Source of the DNA: Anaerolineae bacterium
GTDB lineage: Bacteria; Chloroflexota; Anaerolineae; J102
Reading direction: 5' to 3'
Assembly: GCA_027002405.1 (NCBI GenBank)
Contig: JALWZT010000109.1
Coordinates: 4,624 to 68,623 of the forward strand
Length of the DNA stretch: 64,000 nucleotides
Under the pieces are notes generated by a model. It worked only from the letters and a program-made list of their open reading frames with translations. It had not been told where the DNA came from and did not search any database. Of this stretch, positions 19,444 to 64,000 are shown piece by piece (position 1 is the stretch's first letter; every line of letters starts with the position of its first letter). Both the position numbers and the translations under genes were made by a program.

Positions 19444-20541
19444 TCAAAAATGAACCATGCCCTCTCCACCAACCAGGACCCGGGCAATGCGTTCTCCCGC
19501 GTGGCCGTCCCACAGAGGGGGGACCTCGCCCTGTTTGGCCTTTCCGGCCAGGATCGCCCGGGCTTCGTGCAGGAGTCGGGGCATGTCTTGGCCCACAAGG
19601 ATGTTGGTGCCCACGTGGACCGTCACAGGGCGTTCGGTGTTGGGCCGCACCGTCAGGCAGGGGACTCCCAGGTAGGTGGTTTCTTCCTGCACCCCGCCCG
19701 AATCGGTGATGACCAAACGAGCCTGATCTTGTAATGCCAGGAAGTCCAGGTACCCCAAGGGATCGATCAAACGCAATTGGGGTTGCGTGATGGCATAGGC
19801 CATGCGCTGAAGCCGCTGACGGGTGCGAGGATGGATGGGAAAAACCAAAGGGAGATCCCGCGCCAGTGCTTGCAGAGCGTCCATGATGCTTTGCAGCATG
19901 TCGGGGTCATCCACGTTGGCGGGGCGATGAAGGGTCACCAGGCCATATCTCCGAGGTTCAAGGCCCAAATGAGAAAGGATGGTGGAGGCCCGGGCCTGAG
20001 GCAGAAGGCGGATGAGAGTATCGATCATCACATTGCCCACGAAATGGATTTTGGTGCTGGGAATGCCCTCGCGCGCCAGGTTTTCGTTGCCATCTACCGA
20101 AGGGGTAAAGAGGAGTTCGGCGATTTGATCGGTGAGTAAGCGATTGATCTCCTCGGGCATGGAGCGATCGAAGGAGCGCAGGCCCGCTTCCACATGGGCC
20201 ACGGGGGTGTCCAGTTTGGCACAAACCAGGGCTGCGGCCACGGTGGAGTTGACATCGCCATAGACCAAAACCCAATGGGGGCGTTGGGCCAGCAGGGTCT
20301 CCTCGAACCGCGTCATGATGCGGGCGGTCTGGCGGGCGTGGGAATCGGAGCCGACCTCGAGATTGATGTCGGGCCGGGGGAGTCCCAGTTGGTGAAAGAA
20401 GATCTGGGACATATTGGCATCGTAGTGCTGGCCGGTATGGACCAGCACTTGTTGTACAGAGGGATATTTTTCTAGAGCTCGCATCACAGGCGCGACTTTC
20501 ATGAAATTGGGCCGCGCCCCAACGACATGGAGGATTTTCAT
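19444..20541 (-). CDS. wecB: UDP-N-acetylglucosamine 2-epimerase (non-hydrolysing)
   Basis: MKILHVVGARPNFMKVAP ... full-length WecB/MnaA-like; start moved to MKIL. Confidence 0.85.
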   Translation of the reverse strand: MKILHVVGARPNFMKVAPVMRALEKYPSVQQVLVHTGQHYDANMSQIFFHQLGLPRPDINLEVGSDSHARQTARIMTRFEETLLAQRPHWVLVYGDVNSTVAAALVCAKLDTPVAHVEAGLRSFDRSMPEEINRLLTDQIAELLFTPSVDGNENLAREGIPSTKIHFVGNVMIDTLIRLLPQARASTILSHLGLEPRRYGLVTLHRPANVDDPDMLQSIMDALQALARDLPLVFPIHPRTRQRLQRMAYAITQPQLRLIDPLGYLDFLALQDQARLVITDSGGVQEETTYLGVPCLTVRPNTERPVTVHVGTNILVGQDMPRLLHEARAILAGKAKQGEVPPLWDGHAGERIARVLVGGEGMVHF

Positions 20542-21695
20542 GAGGATGATGAGAGGAGTTGGAGAATACGTTGGAATTGAGGAGTCTGTGTTTCCCACAG
20601 GAAGCGGGATGCGTGGTTTTGAACCCGCTCTTGATAATGCGAACGATGATGCAAAAGGTGCAACAATCCCTGGCGGATGCTTGGGGGCTGGGTTTCGTCA
20701 ACCGTCACACCGCAGCCGCACGTATCGATGAGGCGTTGAAGAGGAGGATTGCGTCCTACCACCACGGGCACACCCCGGGCCAGGGCCTGGTAGAGCCGAT
20801 TGGGCGCACAATAAATCCAGTTGAGGTGCTTTTGGGCATAGAAGACCACGCTGGCTACGGCCGCATCGATGTAGATGGGAACGTCGAGCTGGGGCACGTA
20901 GGACACAAAGCGTACCCATCTGTCGAGATCCGGGCCATATTTTTGGCGCAGGGCTTCGACCCGGGCCGGATCAAAGCCCCCCAAGACAATGAGTTTGGCC
21001 TCCTGCTGGCCCAAAATCGCTTCTACCAATTCCTCGAGATGTCGATCTCCGTGGGCTCCCCCTTGCGCCAGAAAATAGGGCGTGCCCTGAAGCCAAGTCT
21101 GAATGGTGGCCGGGAGCTCCCGCCGAGGTTGTTGACGAAAAATCTGATCGGGGTAATTTTCCAGAGGGATCAAAGGGGTATGCAGGGACGTTCCCAAACG
21201 CGCTTCTAACAATTTCTGGCGATCCTCACTGGCCTGCAACACCACTTGCGGCCGATTCATGAGCCATACCAACAGGCGTTGGCGCCATCCTCCCCGCAGC
21301 AAGCCATCGGGCGGGAGTTCGTGCTGATCCCACACCACCCCCTGGATGATTCCGAAGCTACGCAGCATGGCCAAAAAGGGGATGACGCCCGCGAAAGTCA
21401 TATCATGCACCCACACGATCTGAGGCCGCTTGCGCCAAACCTCTCGCAGGAGCCGGGCGTAAAGCTCCAACGATTTGAGCCAAAGCCGCTGCTGGCTCGG
21501 GTAACGGGCTCGGCTCCACAGGGAGATCACTCTGGCCGCGGCGCCTCCGTAAACAGTGCGCTGATCGGCCTGATTGCTTTGTTCCAAGACAAAAATAGTG
21601 ACTTGCGCGCCCAAACTCAGGAGTGAATGGGTCTCTTTGCGTAATCGGTCATCGTAATCCAGATGCCGGGTTTTTATGGCCATCAAGATGTGCAT
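20538..21695 (-). CDS. glycosyltransferase (GT4/GT1-like fold)
   Basis: ORF track; C-terminal GT-B like region; 4-bp overlap with wecB. Confidence 0.65.
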   Translation of the reverse strand: MHILMAIKTRHLDYDDRLRKETHSLLSLGAQVTIFVLEQSNQADQRTVYGGAAARVISLWSRARYPSQQRLWLKSLELYARLLREVWRKRPQIVWVHDMTFAGVIPFLAMLRSFGIIQGVVWDQHELPPDGLLRGGWRQRLLVWLMNRPQVVLQASEDRQKLLEARLGTSLHTPLIPLENYPDQIFRQQPRRELPATIQTWLQGTPYFLAQGGAHGDRHLEELVEAILGQQEAKLIVLGGFDPARVEALRQKYGPDLDRWVRFVSYVPQLDVPIYIDAAVASVVFYAQKHLNWIYCAPNRLYQALARGVPVVVGRNPPLQRLIDTCGCGVTVDETQPPSIRQGLLHLLHHRSHYQERVQNHASRFLWETQTPQFQRILQLLSSSS

Positions 21696-21699
21696 ACTG

Positions 21700-62464: not shown

Positions 62465-63225
62465 GGCAAACGATTCCAATGACTGAGATCTCTGCCAAGC
62501 AATGCGGCCAAATCCCGGTTAGGATAAAAGAAAACACCCCGCAAAAAAGCCTCTGTGCGGGGGTCCATCACGTCCTGGGGACGACGGGCTGCATTGATCC
62601 TACGAGAAAAATCAAAAGAGGAGGGCAATTGTGGACTCACGCCCAGAAACTGGAATAAACGACGAGCCAGTTCCTTAGGACGGGCCACCAAATCATCAAA
62701 GAATAAAATCAAAATCTGAGAAGAGGGAAAAAGCTGAAAATAAGGCGTTAATAAACGAGCATACATCCCTCGAGACATGTAAGAAAAAGGACGGGCGTAA
62801 CGAAAGCGAGGTTCATACGAAGCTTCCCGCTCCGGCTCTTGCAAGAGAGCCTCTTCAAAGGAGAGGGTTTCGAGGCCATTTTTCCGGGACCACAGATAAT
62901 TGGAAAACGCCCGTTCCACAGGATCTCGCAAAATAAATACCAGCTTCATATGAGGGAGATCCCGATGAATGCGCTGAGCCACCACCGGCGATTCCAGATA
63001 ATTGGTCGATTTTTCCCCAATAGCCCGATAACCTCGGGCCTGGGCAAAATAGCGCTGGTGATAATAGGTGAGCCCTTTGGCATACTCCTCATCCACCAAA
63101 AAAAATTTGGGTTCAGGAGCCCGAGGCCGGGCCATGTAAATTTCAGGATGAGCCGCGCACAAATCGTAAAGATACGTTGTTCCCGAACGAGGTGCGCCCG
63201 CGATAATAAAGGTGGGGGTATTCAT
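62461..63225 (-). CDS. sulfotransferase family protein
   Basis: PAPS 5'-PSB motif IIAGAPRSGTTYL and 3'-PB region VFILRDPVERAFSNY; start moved to MNTPTFII. Confidence 0.75.
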   Translation of the reverse strand: MNTPTFIIAGAPRSGTTYLYDLCAAHPEIYMARPRAPEPKFFLVDEEYAKGLTYYHQRYFAQARGYRAIGEKSTNYLESPVVAQRIHRDLPHMKLVFILRDPVERAFSNYLWSRKNGLETLSFEEALLQEPEREASYEPRFRYARPFSYMSRGMYARLLTPYFQLFPSSQILILFFDDLVARPKELARRLFQFLGVSPQLPSSFDFSRRINAARRPQDVMDPRTEAFLRGVFFYPNRDLAALLGRDLSHWNRLP

Positions 63226-64000
63226 AAGGATGTTCCCTCTCTTGAATCCACGGGAAGACGGCTGGCTGAAGTTTCGTGACGGCGATACAAAACATACACG
63301 AGCGCGCCCGGTAAACGCAAGAGAATAATCCATAGGCGCAGTAAAAGCATGATGGCCGCACCCTGGGAAACCCCAAATTGAGCAAAAAGCAAGGACGAGG
63401 TCGCCTCGGCCACCCCGACCCCTCCAGGAGCTAGAGGCAAACTATTGGCAATCGTAATTAAAGGGGCAATCAAAAACACAACCTGCCAGCTCACTCGCGC
63501 CCCCATGGTGCGCGTTGCCATATAAAAGGAGGTAAGGTAAAAAAGGCTTCCTAACGCCGAGAAAATAACCGCTTCTAGCAAACGACGAGGTTGCGCCTTA
63601 AACGCCTCAATGACCTCCAACAACCTCTGACGAAACCGGCTAGGAACCCAACGGAGAAGCCAATGCAATGTAGGAGGCCATAGCAGCCATATGAAACCCG
63701 CTGTCATCCCCCCTACTAATAGCCACATCAGCGTCCCGACCTCGCGTACCTGTTCTGCAAAGGGTGTTTCAGTACGACTTAATATCCACACCGAAGGGGT
63801 TCCGAGCCAAATAAGGACGTACAATCCCATGACGCGATCCATCAACACCGTGGAAATCCCTGAGGTCACCGTCGCTGAGGATTCCTGACTGATGTAGTAA
63901 GCTCGCACAAGCTCCCCCCCCGATGCACCGGGCAGAAGAACAGAAAAAAATTGCCCCATCCAGGAAAGCTGGACCGCTTGCTGCCAACGGATGTAGATGC
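63222..64000 (-). CDS. lysylphosphatidylglycerol-synthase-TM-like (UPF0104/flippase-like) polytopic membrane protein, 5' end beyond window
   Basis: open frame continues past 64000; GxxGGELxRxY-like and multi-TM composition. Confidence 0.55.
   Translation of the reverse strand, partial: IYIRWQQAVQLSWMGQFFSVLLPGASGGELVRAYYISQESSATVTSGISTVLMDRVMGLYVLIWLGTPSVWILSRTETPFAEQVREVGTLMWLLVGGMTAGFIWLLWPPTLHWLLRWVPSRFRQRLLEVIEAFKAQPRRLLEAVIFSALGSLFYLTSFYMATRTMGARVSWQVVFLIAPLITIANSLPLAPGGVGVAEATSSLLFAQFGVSQGAAIMLLLRLWIILLRLPGALVYVLYRRHETSASRLPVDSREGTSL

Follow-up and report, generated by a model that had tools for sequence, protein, structure and literature searches.

A mosaic surface-glycan locus in an Anaerolineae bacterium and a sulfotransferase–glycosyltransferase cassette found across bacterial phyla

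The 64,000-nucleotide stretch of contig JALWZT010000109.1 from an Anaerolineae bacterium (hereafter the window) contains, from 19.4 kb to its end, a surface-glycan locus whose long open reading frames (ORFs) lie nearly all on the minus strand (Table 1). The locus is composite: at least three blocks are split by a 7.5-kb toxin–antitoxin (TA) island and by gaps bearing repeats. At its upper end is the cassette that is the main subject here, in which a carbohydrate sulfotransferase of the type using 3′-phosphoadenosine-5′-phosphosulfate (PAPS) adjoins GT2c, a GtrB/ArnC-type polyisoprenyl-phosphate glycosyltransferase of family 2 (GT2), and genes for amino-sugar synthesis. Genes in the window were identified by Pfam, NCBIfam and Protein Data Bank (PDB) sequence searches, with the NCBIfam equivalog cutoffs applied. 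These searches largely bear out the gene list of a first-pass annotation made from the sequence, namely WecB, a WbaP-like transferase, glycosyltransferases, Wzx, DegT, two short-chain dehydrogenase/reductase (SDR) proteins, an ArnC-like GT2, a sulfotransferase and an LPG_synthase_TM protein.

The sulfotransferase cassette

The sulfotransferase gene starts with ATG at 63225, and its start and stop codons overlap both neighbouring genes, an arrangement of translational coupling. The closest solved relatives of the protein are a bacterial sulfotransferase (3rnl, E = 6e-26), heparan-sulfate 3-OST-1 (2.6e-17) and the sulfotransferase domain of NDST1 (2e-11), and its motifs align with those of 3-OST-1 (GAPRSGTT with GVRKGGTR, GEKSTNYL with VEKTPAYF, and ILRDPVERAFSNY with ILRDPSERVLSDY). 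Its sequence has the hallmarks of PAPS sulfotransferases (PF00685/PF13469, with Pfam matches above cutoff): a 5′-phosphosulfate loop, a 3′-phosphate RxxxxRxxS motif and an xEK catalytic motif. In 19 members of the family, E71, K72, R100 and S108 are invariant and R13 is kept in at least 90%; the family is large, with 1,670 matches. The PAPS-binding loops and the xEKSxxY motif are common to the window enzyme, 3-OST, NDST and 3rnl, whereas the window enzyme differs from the heparan-sulfate 3-OST and NDST in being a bacterial, stand-alone, cytoplasmic protein of 254 aa and in having Arg instead of Lys in the 5′-phosphosulfate loop. The searches do not reassign this protein to a non-glycan function, its nearest solved relatives being heparan-sulfate glucosamine sulfotransferases, and the initial identification stands.

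GT2c aligns over its full length (residues 12–314) with GtrB sll0501 (5eke, 3.6e-77), and also with ArnC (1.7e-42) and DPMS (6.7e-17); its transmembrane (TM) segments lie within residues 240–293. It matches the PgfS model at 5e-71, and both PgfS and ArnC scores fall below the equivalog cutoffs, so that GT2c is a member of the GtrB/ArnC-type family and not an ortholog of either protein. The DegT gene, whose likely start is 60488 (as in a 397 aa gene call on contig L001, from a near-identical metagenome-assembled genome, MAG), overlaps the SDRa gene by 4 bp. Exact-sequence look-ups of the DegT (408-aa ORF) and WbaP products gave no match, probably because of other start codons in the gene calls; that of the sulfotransferase did match. 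The LPG_synthase_TM gene is cut by the window end. On six contigs that are 99.5–99.9% identical to the window (L001–L006), the full gene encodes 332 aa and is preceded by a gene for a Gfo/Idh/MocA oxidoreductase, beyond which lies DXP synthase; the cluster thus extends past the window. The LPG_synthase_TM protein, a UPF0104 flippase-like membrane protein, has weak matches to MprF (2e-6) and to the glucosamine-phosphatidylglycerol (GlcN-PG) flippase model (2.9e-5), and the oxidoreductase best matches archaeal UDP-GlcNAc 3-dehydrogenase, below cutoff. The gene order in the window lineage is Gfo/Idh/MocA, LPG_synthase_TM, sulfotransferase, GT2, SDR, DegT.

The cassette was surveyed in 80 sulfotransferase loci of species-representative genomes from more than ten phyla, almost all of them MAGs (Chloroflexota, Planctomycetota, Acidobacteriota, Actinomycetota, Alpha-/Beta-/Deltaproteobacteria, Nitrospirota, Nitrospinota, Elusimicrobiota, Eremiobacterota and others). 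Cultured carriers exist too, one of them Arenibaculum pallidiluteum SYSU D00532 (L090). A GT2c homolog on the same strand abuts the sulfotransferase gene in 57 of the 80 loci and lies within 5 kb of it in 67. Within 8.5 kb, 64 loci have DegT, 61 have an SDR and 54 have Gfo/Idh/MocA; the full set of four partners is near the sulfotransferase in 45 of the 80, and only three loci have none of them. Homologs of WbaP, Wzx and Wzc were found in none (0/80). Elsewhere the genes most often run Gfo/Idh/MocA, hexapeptide acetyltransferase, DegT, SDR, DegT, sulfotransferase, GT2, and in other phyla the GT2 gene is often followed by one for a polytopic membrane protein, a deacetylase-like protein (DUF2334/Polysacc_deac_1) or an LPG_synthase_TM protein. 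At the threshold used, an LPG_synthase_TM homolog is near the sulfotransferase in 4–6 of the 80 loci. In 13 of the 80 loci (L022, L026, L028, L042, L048 and eight others) the fetched flank (~10 kb) includes a homolog of APS kinase, a frequency that is far above chance, assuming a single-copy gene. The neighbours of the APS kinase gene in L010/L022, CTP_transf_3 and GATase/His_biosynth genes, suggest a branch of nonulosonic-acid-like type. No description of the cassette was found in the literature library searched, and looking there for a sulfotransferase combined with ArnC and ArnT likewise gave nothing; a study of Shark Bay mats scored sulfotransferases by presence or absence only.

A second block of the window, at 27–35 kb, is linked to the cassette through its relatives. 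It encodes MT27, a class I S-adenosylmethionine (SAM) methyltransferase, two soluble GT2 enzymes (GT2a and GT2b) and two proteins with tetratricopeptide repeats (TPR), TPR665 and PMT2-TPR. The GT-C glycosyltransferase PMT2-TPR has an N-terminal PMT_2 domain with ~12 TM segments and C-terminal TPR repeats of ~300 aa, and a 4-bp overlap couples its gene to that of TPR665, which is predicted to be exported and anchored. TPR665 contains a tandem duplication of a ~208-aa domain (internal repeat with 34% identity, 5e-38) for which there is no family match; both copies end in a ...FDDV(T)W... motif. As for the pair of large TPR membrane proteins listed on first pass, PMT2-TPR is indeed polytopic with TPRs, but it is a PMT_2 GT-C enzyme, and TPR665 is a single-pass protein with one TPR stretch.

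In a 77%-identical relative (L007/L011), a single gene string contains sulfotransferase, TA pair, GT2, SDR, DegT, TA pair, an ortholog of the methyltransferase MT58, a second sulfotransferase, GT2, DUF354, LPG_synthase_TM and, immediately after the last, a PMT2-TPR ortholog. The second sulfotransferase, at ~6214–9082 together with the other GT2 and the DUF354 protein, belongs to a different family (Sulfotransfer_2 / Gal-3-O-sulfotransferase-like), and the TA pairs inserted between cassette genes are BrnT/BrnA and HicA/HicB. MT58 accompanies the cassette in Chloroflexota relatives (ortholog in L011 at 7.6e-117). In a 65% relative from Caldilineales (L012), orthologs of GT2b, GT2a and MT27 directly follow the cassette (1e-116 and 9e-78 for GT2a and GT2b, respectively), and in L092, another genome of the same sample series, the genes for PMT2-TPR, GT2b, GT2a, MT27, GT4b, TM487, the Wzc-like protein and GT4a form a syntenic block. 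In Planctomycetota (L009 12025–19273; L008 11977–13554), one to three paralogous genes come after the GT2 gene that adjoins the sulfotransferase; their ~520-aa products have 8–12 TM segments, no Pfam match and 34–44% mutual identity, and are candidates for a new GT-C-like family. A GT-C gene linked to GT2, as in three-component glycosylation systems, is thus seen as the PMT2-TPR ortholog of L007/L011, and polytopic paralogs follow GT2 in Planctomycetota. Because of this adjacency in relatives, the L092 synteny and the lack of WbaP, Wzx and Wzc homologs in all 80 loci, the cassette and the 27–35 kb block appear to behave as one system, which in the window is interrupted by the block of WbaP, GT4 and Wzx genes and by the TA island.

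Table 1. Features of the glycan locus and its flanks, with positions in the window (numbers after family names are E-values)
Feature	Position	Strand	Matches and remarks
1120-aa PMT_2/NHL protein	14115-17477	+	N-terminal PMT_2, C-terminal NHL repeats
GMP synthase (guaA)	17632-19191		Lower cluster boundary
WecB-type UDP-GlcNAc 2-epimerase	19444-20598	-	Epimerase_2 2.3e-111; last gene of the cluster
GT4a, weakly matching GT4	20538-21695	-	Glyco_trans_4_4 9.6e-9, Glyco_trans_1_4 3.7e-6
Repeat family A	21738-21908, 28229-28378, 59110-59277	both	Intergenic; ~150-190 bp
105-aa ORF	22033-22350	-	No family match
Wzc-like polysaccharide co-polymerase, 738 aa	22391-24607	-	TIGR01007 7.1e-31; two TM, long coiled coil, C-terminal P-loop ATPase
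TM487, polytopic, 487 aa	24650-26113	-	~11-13 TM; models as GT-C fold (moderate confidence); GC 45%; no family match
GT4b glycosyltransferase	26115-27227	-	Glycos_transf_1 3.9e-33
MT27, class I SAM methyltransferase	27232-28011	-	Methyltransf_11 1.3e-18
Repeat family B	27993-28143, 48081-48301, 53487-53548, 58270-58331		Intergenic
GT2a, soluble GT2	28419-29147	-	Glycos_transf_2 4.6e-28
GT2b, soluble GT2	29144-30001	-	Glycos_transf_2 6.8e-27; 4-bp overlap with GT2a
TPR665, single-pass exported protein, 665 aa	30024-32021	-	TPR families at residues 86-138 only; one TM
PMT2-TPR, GT-C glycosyltransferase, 1006 aa	32018-35038	-	PMT_2 3.8e-10; many TPR families
WbaP/WcaJ-like polyprenyl-phosphate hexose-1-phosphate transferase, initiating	35275-36774	-	Bac_transf 6.3e-63, CoA_binding_3, TIGR03025 1.6e-108
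GT4c, GT4d, GT4e	36755-40202	-	Glycos_transf_1 9e-35, 4e-39, 3e-22; 4-bp overlaps at 37867, 39000
MT40, class I SAM methyltransferase	40217-40876	-	Methyltransf_11 1.3e-15
GT4f, GT4g, GT4h	41062-44340	-	Glycos_transf_1 / Glyco_trans_1_4 1e-21, 8e-42, 3e-13
MT44, class I SAM methyltransferase	44319-45383	-	Methyltransf_23 6.8e-28; ~140-aa N-terminal extension
Wzx-type MOP flippase	45367-46845	-	Polysacc_synt 4.8e-21, Polysacc_synt_3 4.9e-18, PRK10459 MOP flippase 1.1e-10
Frameshifted methyltransferase	46763-47303	-	Methyltransf_25 profile positions 1-53 only; GC3 (GC at third codon positions) 0.35
Divergent methyltransferase-like gene	47358-48059	+	Aligns to MT27 6e-7; most AT-rich patch, GC 43%
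GT4i glycosyltransferase	48331-49458	-	Glycos_transf_1 4.3e-41
TA island, 7.5 kb	49549-57049	-	Pfam; no glycan genes
Truncated gmd relic (GDP-mannose 4,6-dehydratase-like)	56432-56611	-	First ~40 codons, then stop
SDRb, sugar-nucleotide epimerase/dehydratase	57175-58218	-	GDP_Man_Dehyd 1.3e-60, Epimerase 9e-58; GalE, RmlB models below cutoff
MT58, class I SAM methyltransferase	58430-59227	-	Methyltransf_11 7.6e-15
DegT-family sugar aminotransferase	59295-60521	-	DegT_DnrJ_EryC1 7e-115; PseC 5.5e-92, ArnB 1.1e-83, both below cutoff
SDRa, cassette's sugar-nucleotide epimerase/dehydratase	60485-61456	-	Epimerase 1.3e-56
GT2c, GtrB/ArnC-type glycosyltransferase	61460-62479 (likely start 62464)	-	PDB relatives; C-terminal TM hairpin
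Soluble PAPS-type carbohydrate sulfotransferase, 254 aa	62461-63225	-	Sulfotransfer_3 2e-19, Sulfotransfer_1 6e-18
LPG_synthase_TM / UPF0104 flippase-like membrane protein	63222-64000 (cut by window end)	-	LPG_synthase_TM 9.2e-32; TIGR00374 66.2 bits vs cutoff 43.2

Glycan-assembly genes and the polymerase candidate

The other blocks contain genes of oligosaccharide assembly. The WbaP-like protein scores above the TIGR03025 cutoff (363.8 vs 295.55 bits), as expected of an initiating transferase of the Wzx/Wzy pathway, and Pfam likewise identifies the flippase of that pathway as a Wzx protein of the MOP family, whose true start is probably at 46698 (MQLSKN...). Nine glycosyltransferases of family 4 (GT4) and three of GT2 account for the approximately 12 predicted at the outset. 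The Wzc-like protein has two TM segments, a coiled coil and a C-terminal ATPase, as in PCP-2a proteins, and a visible Walker A motif (GLPREGKST), with no Wzz (PF02706) match at E ≤ 0.001. It had been described as a Wzc bacterial tyrosine kinase (BY-kinase); the P-loop domain and the two TM segments agree with this, but the last 34 residues contain no tyrosine, so that the C-terminal tyrosine cluster of BY-kinases is lacking, and the TIGR01007 score is just under the cutoff (107.3 vs 108.05 bits).

TM487, which had been taken for a Wzy-like polymerase, has no Wzy, O-antigen-ligase or EpsG signature and is modelled as a GT-C fold. Only three homologs were found in a collection of 5.8 billion sequences, of which the most distant carries a PMT_2 match (3.3e-6) and another only a faint Wzy_C match (0.022). 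In an exhaustive profile search, the TM487 family comprises 426 representatives without Pfam assignment. Among 53 sampled members, Pfam at E ≤ 0.01 gave single matches to PMT_2, DUF2142 and PMT, which we take to be GT-C-related families, and three weaker matches to unrelated families; no Wzy-family match was found among them at this threshold. The family has a conserved PY..GGSDD motif in the first long loop, which is presumably the kind of acidic loop motif carried by GT-C enzymes. At moderate model confidence, TM487 is regarded as a GT-C-fold glycosyltransferase, and a polymerase-like role of such an enzyme is possible.

The first-pass annotation had interpreted the whole locus as Wzx/Wzy-dependent. 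In a canonical exopolysaccharide (EPS) cluster of this kind, TM487 would be Wzy, the 738-aa protein would be a Wzc BY-kinase, and the sulfotransferase and methyltransferases would tailor the undecaprenyl-diphosphate repeat unit before flipping. This is consistent with the presence of a WbaP-like transferase, Wzx, a protein resembling polysaccharide co-polymerases (PCP) and many GT4 genes, with the position of TM487 beside the gene for the Wzc-like protein in the window and of their counterparts in L092, and with the faint Wzy_C match in the TM487 family noted above. Like many Wzy genes, TM487 is also rich in AT and almost an orphan, and the synechan xss cluster is a precedent for sulfotransferases in a Wzx/Wzy cluster (PMC8205485). 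We nevertheless consider this reading unlikely: Wzx/Wzy-dependence is unproven because the cluster has no recognisable Wzy, the candidate TM487 is modelled as GT-C, and no other polytopic ORF in the cluster could serve.

The GT-C enzymes could also act mainly on proteins. In such a scheme the locus would glycosylate, for example, an S-layer or sheath protein and make no free polysaccharide, the GT-C enzymes passing to proteins either the oligosaccharide flipped by Wzx or the lipid-linked monosaccharides, with PMT2-TPR resembling the eukaryotic TMTC/PMT O-mannosyltransferases and TM487 a small oligosaccharyltransferase. This seems very unlikely, as the Wzc-like co-polymerase is present and syntenic with TM487, and TM487 lacks the large soluble domain of oligosaccharyltransferases (487 aa vs ~700–870 aa for the targets). 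Moreover, no acceptor protein is evident in the window, and GT-C enzymes decorate polysaccharides and lipids too.

Mosaic structure of the locus

Six methyltransferases had been counted initially. Four are intact by Pfam (MT27, MT40, MT44 and MT58), whereas one is frameshifted and one is a divergent plus-strand gene with no Pfam or NCBIfam match. In the frameshifted gene, the N-terminal half with motif I is encoded at 46989–47303 and the C-terminal half, in another frame, at 46763–47032; the fused product aligns across the junction to MT27 and MT44. On the basis of the ORF translations and this alignment, 46989–47303 was rejected as a stand-alone short gene, and the split methyltransferase is either a pseudogene or an assembly error. 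The plus-strand ORF at 47.1–48.1 kb was not dismissed as spurious, since the last 233 aa of its product can be aligned with MT27 and, weakly, with a methyltransferase of solved structure (juvenile-hormone acid methyltransferase, 8e-4). Both genes lie in the most AT-rich patch.

The TA island contains an AbiEii-like nucleotidyltransferase gene, two identical PIN_3/Phd pairs, two DUF3368-PIN/UPF0175 pairs, a lone UPF0175, HepT/MNT and HicA/HicB remnants, and its internal duplications have 94–99% identity. A segment of ~1.1–1.3 kb with the PIN_3/Phd pair is present at 50.3–51.7 kb and again at 53.9–55.5 kb, including a 300-nt stretch that is 99% identical at a spacing of 3842 bp. Two components match PADLOC families that are only candidates (PDC-S70, PDC-S09). 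A G-rich octamer-like tract (AAGGTGACAAGGAGACAAGGTGAGGGGG...) is repeated at 51.58, 52.76 and 55.44 kb. The truncated gmd relic overlaps, in another frame, an ORF with a weak HicA match. The ORF at 56400–56768 was rejected as an SDRb relic, having no similarity to SDRb; the relic, in another frame, is gmd-like. As the gmd relic is inside the island, the island sits where a sugar-nucleotide gene was destroyed, which suggests that it took the place of a portion of the glycan cluster that included at least a gmd gene.

Two families of intergenic repeats mark several block junctions; three copies were counted for each, with none expected by chance. Family A occurs in both orientations and has a 43-nt core with an internal palindrome (CGTGATGCGTGAAACGTGAAACGTGAGCATCTTACGCATCACG) and no Rfam match; the core of family B is GAACGCAGATTTGCGCAGATGCTTCGCAGCGCAGATTT, and this family may be an element like miniature inverted-repeat transposable elements (MITEs) or repetitive extragenic palindromes (REPs) that is linked to rearrangements. 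Rfam searches found no RNA families in the window. The 105-aa ORF lies beside a family A copy in the 696-bp gap between GT4a and the gene for the Wzc-like protein and is probably not a gene.

At its lower boundary, the cluster adjoins at WecB the GMP synthase gene, whose product is 80–85% identical to proteins of Chloroflexota, Caldilineae and Caldilineales MAGs and 68% to that of Litorilinea aerophila; these identities mark the host as a Caldilineae-like member of the Chloroflexota. Just outside the cluster and on the other strand is the gene for the 1120-aa protein, in which a PMT_2 GT-C domain with ~13 TM segments is fused to an NHL-repeat β-propeller; with a housekeeping-like GC3 of 0.74, it is a third GT-C-type enzyme nearby.

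Gene overlaps of 4 bp (ATGA-type) are seen at five junctions, as predicted (29144/29147, 32018/32021, 37867/37870, 39000/39003 and 63222/63225), and with the start codons called on L001 the DegT/SDRa and GT2c/sulfotransferase junctions become 4-bp overlaps as well. The GC content is patchy, with dips at 25–26 kb (0.445), 34–35 kb (0.454) and 47–48 kb (0.424), in agreement with the AT-rich stretches noted on first pass. GC3 is 0.35–0.69 in cluster genes vs 0.65–0.82 in genes upstream of the cluster, and is lowest in the frameshifted and plus-strand methyltransferases, GT4h, MT44, PMT2-TPR, GT4d, the sulfotransferase and TM487. Low, patchy GC, GC3 and the dispersed repeats fit a mosaic assembly of the locus. 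The picture of a ~45-kb single-strand cluster is therefore true in that the genes are mostly on the minus strand, but a plus-strand gene and the TA island lie within it. The locus is not one co-linear unit but consists of at least three blocks, with one frameshifted gene, one opposite-strand gene and the truncated gmd relic; the mosaic acquisition that had been suspected is borne out by a large, mosaic, low-GC surface-glycan locus. Apart from the cassette, the locus is unremarkable: a mosaic gene cluster for surface glycans such as environmental genomes commonly carry.

A possible lipid-carrier route for sulfated amino sugars

We lean, with modest confidence, towards a reading in which this composite locus makes a Wzx-type glycan that is decorated outside the membrane with a sulfated amino sugar via GT2, a flippase and a GT-C enzyme, the decorated acceptor possibly being a protein. 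Two machineries would be involved. In the first, encoded at 35.3–49.5 kb together with WecB and GT4a/GT4b, the WbaP-like enzyme would prime polyprenyl phosphate, the unit would be built by as many as nine GT4 enzymes and O-methylated by as many as four methyltransferases, and Wzx would flip it, with the Wzc-like co-polymerase present. In the second, Gfo/Idh/MocA, SDRa and DegT would produce a nucleotide-activated (UDP-) amino sugar, which the GtrB-type GT2c would load onto polyprenyl phosphate. The PAPS-dependent sulfotransferase would then act at the cytoplasmic face, on a hydroxyl or on the amine made by DegT, the UPF0104 flippase-like protein would carry the sulfated lipid-linked sugar across the membrane, and PMT2-TPR, possibly with TM487, would transfer the sugar to the exported glycan or to a surface protein. 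The two halves of the second machinery, contiguous in relatives, would be separated in the window by the first machinery and the 7.5-kb TA island. We infer the order of these steps, the substrate of sulfation, the acceptor and the action of both machineries on the same product from domain identities, motifs, cross-phylum synteny and, at moderate model confidence, the fold of TM487.

The lipid-carrier decoration model is favoured because of the GtrB identity of GT2c and its recurrent linkage to GT-C genes. The O-methylated, possibly sulfated heteropolysaccharide that had been predicted is accordingly to be modified: a PAPS-type sulfotransferase, an amino-sugar branch and several methyltransferases make a methylated and sulfated glycoconjugate reasonable, but the sulfate is more likely to be on a separately delivered, lipid-carried amino sugar added outside the membrane, because the sulfotransferase gene is in a coupled cassette that is conserved across phyla and tied to GT-C enzymes in relatives. 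For the cassette in general, a sulfotransferase and a GtrB-type GT2, usually with DegT, an SDR and Gfo/Idh/MocA and often with an acetyltransferase, we tentatively propose an uncharacterised pathway in more than ten phyla by which a sulfated, possibly N-sulfated, amino sugar on polyprenyl phosphate would be delivered via GT-C enzymes to surface polymers or proteins.

Several observations weigh against the decoration model. The window contains no PAPS-synthesis genes and no evident acceptor, and in it the cassette lies 22 kb from the GT-C genes. The UPF0104 cargos found in the literature are end-product lipids only (lysyl-phosphatidylglycerol, GlcN-PG and an aminohexosyl glycolipid), not polyprenyl-phosphate sugars. 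The sequence of the sulfotransferase is compatible with either O- or N-sulfation and with a nucleotide sugar, a lipid-linked sugar or another substrate. For TM487, the model is of moderate confidence only (pLDDT 61.5, from a 4-sequence alignment) and has no Foldseek match at E ≤ 0.001; the 53-sequence family profile has no match among PDB sequences, and the family profile has no significant match to the two PMT_2 proteins of the window. A polymerase role would also be in keeping with the position of TM487 next to a Wzc-like co-polymerase in two genomes. In addition, the functional statements draw on sequence and on synteny in MAGs.

Known systems resemble the proposed route in part. In GtrA/GtrB/GtrC systems (O-antigen glucosylation) and CsbB/GtcA/YfhO-type systems (teichoic acid), a GtrB-type GT2, a translocation membrane protein and one or more GT-C transferases act together, and counterparts of these parts are encoded side by side in relatives; the general scheme of such three-component extracytoplasmic glycosylation has been summarised (PMC13390465). 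The window differs in that no GtrA-like protein was found in it and the UPF0104/LPG_synthase_TM protein, a candidate flippase, seems to hold the position of the small GtrA, in that the GT-C partner carries a large TPR domain, and in that the cassette has its own amino-sugar pathway and a PAPS-type sulfotransferase, which were not found described for such systems.

The Arn pathway, which adds 4-amino-4-deoxy-L-arabinose (L-Ara4N) to lipid A, likewise comprises oxidation as by the SDR, amination by an enzyme like DegT (ArnB-like, 1.1e-83), an ArnC-like GT2 that uses undecaprenyl phosphate, flipping and GT-C transfer, and the deacetylase-like genes after GT2 in some phyla are comparable to ArnD. 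However, Pfam detects no Formyl_trans or deacetylase domain among the window genes, ArnE/F are lacking, the SDRs match ArnA only weakly (7.6e-13), and no match reaches its NCBIfam equivalog cutoff; the cassette is thus not an Arn member, and it has a Gfo/Idh/MocA 3-dehydrogenase-like enzyme and a sulfotransferase in addition. The host phylum is generally regarded as lacking lipid A, and the acceptor must therefore differ from that of Arn.

A membrane glycolipid could instead be the end product of the cassette: GT2c would glycosylate a membrane lipid, the sugar would be aminated and sulfated, and the UPF0104 protein would flip the lipid to the outer leaflet, altering surface charge independently of the polysaccharide genes. 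Membership of the flippase-like protein in UPF0104/TIGR00374, with its weak MprF and GlcN-PG flippase matches, points in this direction, as do the deacetylase-like genes that follow GT2 in some phyla and the physical separation of the cassette from the GT-C genes in the window. GpgSDF (GlcN-PG of Pseudomonas) and HexSDF (an aminohexosyl glycolipid of C. difficile) pair a UPF0104/MprF-like flippase with a glycosyltransferase and a deacetylase to produce an amino-sugar headgroup (PMC12713373, PMC10128005). We nevertheless consider a glycolipid product rather improbable. The flippase type matches that of GpgSDF and HexSDF, but the window has no deacetylase, and their operons contain neither a sulfotransferase nor a DegT pathway. 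GpgS and HexS, which act on glycerolipids, are annotated as GT4 and MGDG-synthase-like and presumably have the GT-B fold, whereas GT2c is a close full-length relative of GtrB/ArnC (a GT-A enzyme), and the substrate of ArnC is, by its name, undecaprenyl phosphate. In relatives the cassette is found together with genes for GT-C or other polytopic proteins, and the low count of LPG_synthase_TM homologs near the sulfotransferase in the survey indicates that the flippase type is not constant.

Glycan sulfation is also reported from other systems. The synechan xss cluster of Synechocystis PCC 6803 and wps-1 of Actinoplanes are large, predict a sulfated surface polysaccharide and combine Wzx, a PCP and many glycosyltransferases with sulfotransferases of the PF00685/PF13469 type (PMC8205485, PMC13390465); the present locus resembles them in its size, its Wzx, its PCP-like protein, its many glycosyltransferases and its sulfotransferase. 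The xss sulfotransferases have been proposed to tailor the repeat unit, and that cluster contains Wzy and the XssQ/R/S regulators (PMC8205485); in the window, by contrast, the sulfotransferase gene is not dispersed among those of the repeat-unit glycosyltransferases but is coupled to genes for a GtrB-type GT2 and for amino-sugar synthesis, Wzy is not recognisable, and there are no XssQ/R/S-type regulator genes among the Pfam results. Experiments on the low-salt N-glycan pathway of Haloferax volcanii (Agl5–Agl15) indicate that a hexose bound to dolichol phosphate receives its sulfate before it is translocated, and they implicate Agl7 (PMC3892788). Sulfation of a lipid-carried sugar before translocation is the step proposed for the window enzyme, and the likeness is one of step only, as the archaeal pathway is for N-glycosylation and uses dolichol and a hexose rather than an amino sugar. 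What would be new here is sulfation built into a lipid-carrier glycosylation system of the GtrB/Arn kind.

Sulfated bacterial polysaccharides are stated to be known only from cyanobacteria, apart from one genetic hint of 2026 in an actinomycete (PMC8205485, PMC13390465), in line with the rarity assumed in the first-pass annotation. A PAPS-type, heparan-sulfate-like sulfotransferase that is genetically tied to a polyprenyl-phosphate glycosyltransferase and an amino-sugar pathway points to a different and apparently widespread route. If the proposal is true, sulfated glycoconjugates would be widespread in bacteria and not a cyanobacterial speciality, and bacteria would possess a lipid-carrier route to sulfo-glycosylation that parallels the Arn-type cationic modification, with the opposite effect on charge. 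The six-gene cassette would then be one for bacterial sulfo-glycosylation, with possible enzymes for making sulfated amino sugars, and would give access to the surface chemistry of many uncultured bacteria from soils, sediments and mats.

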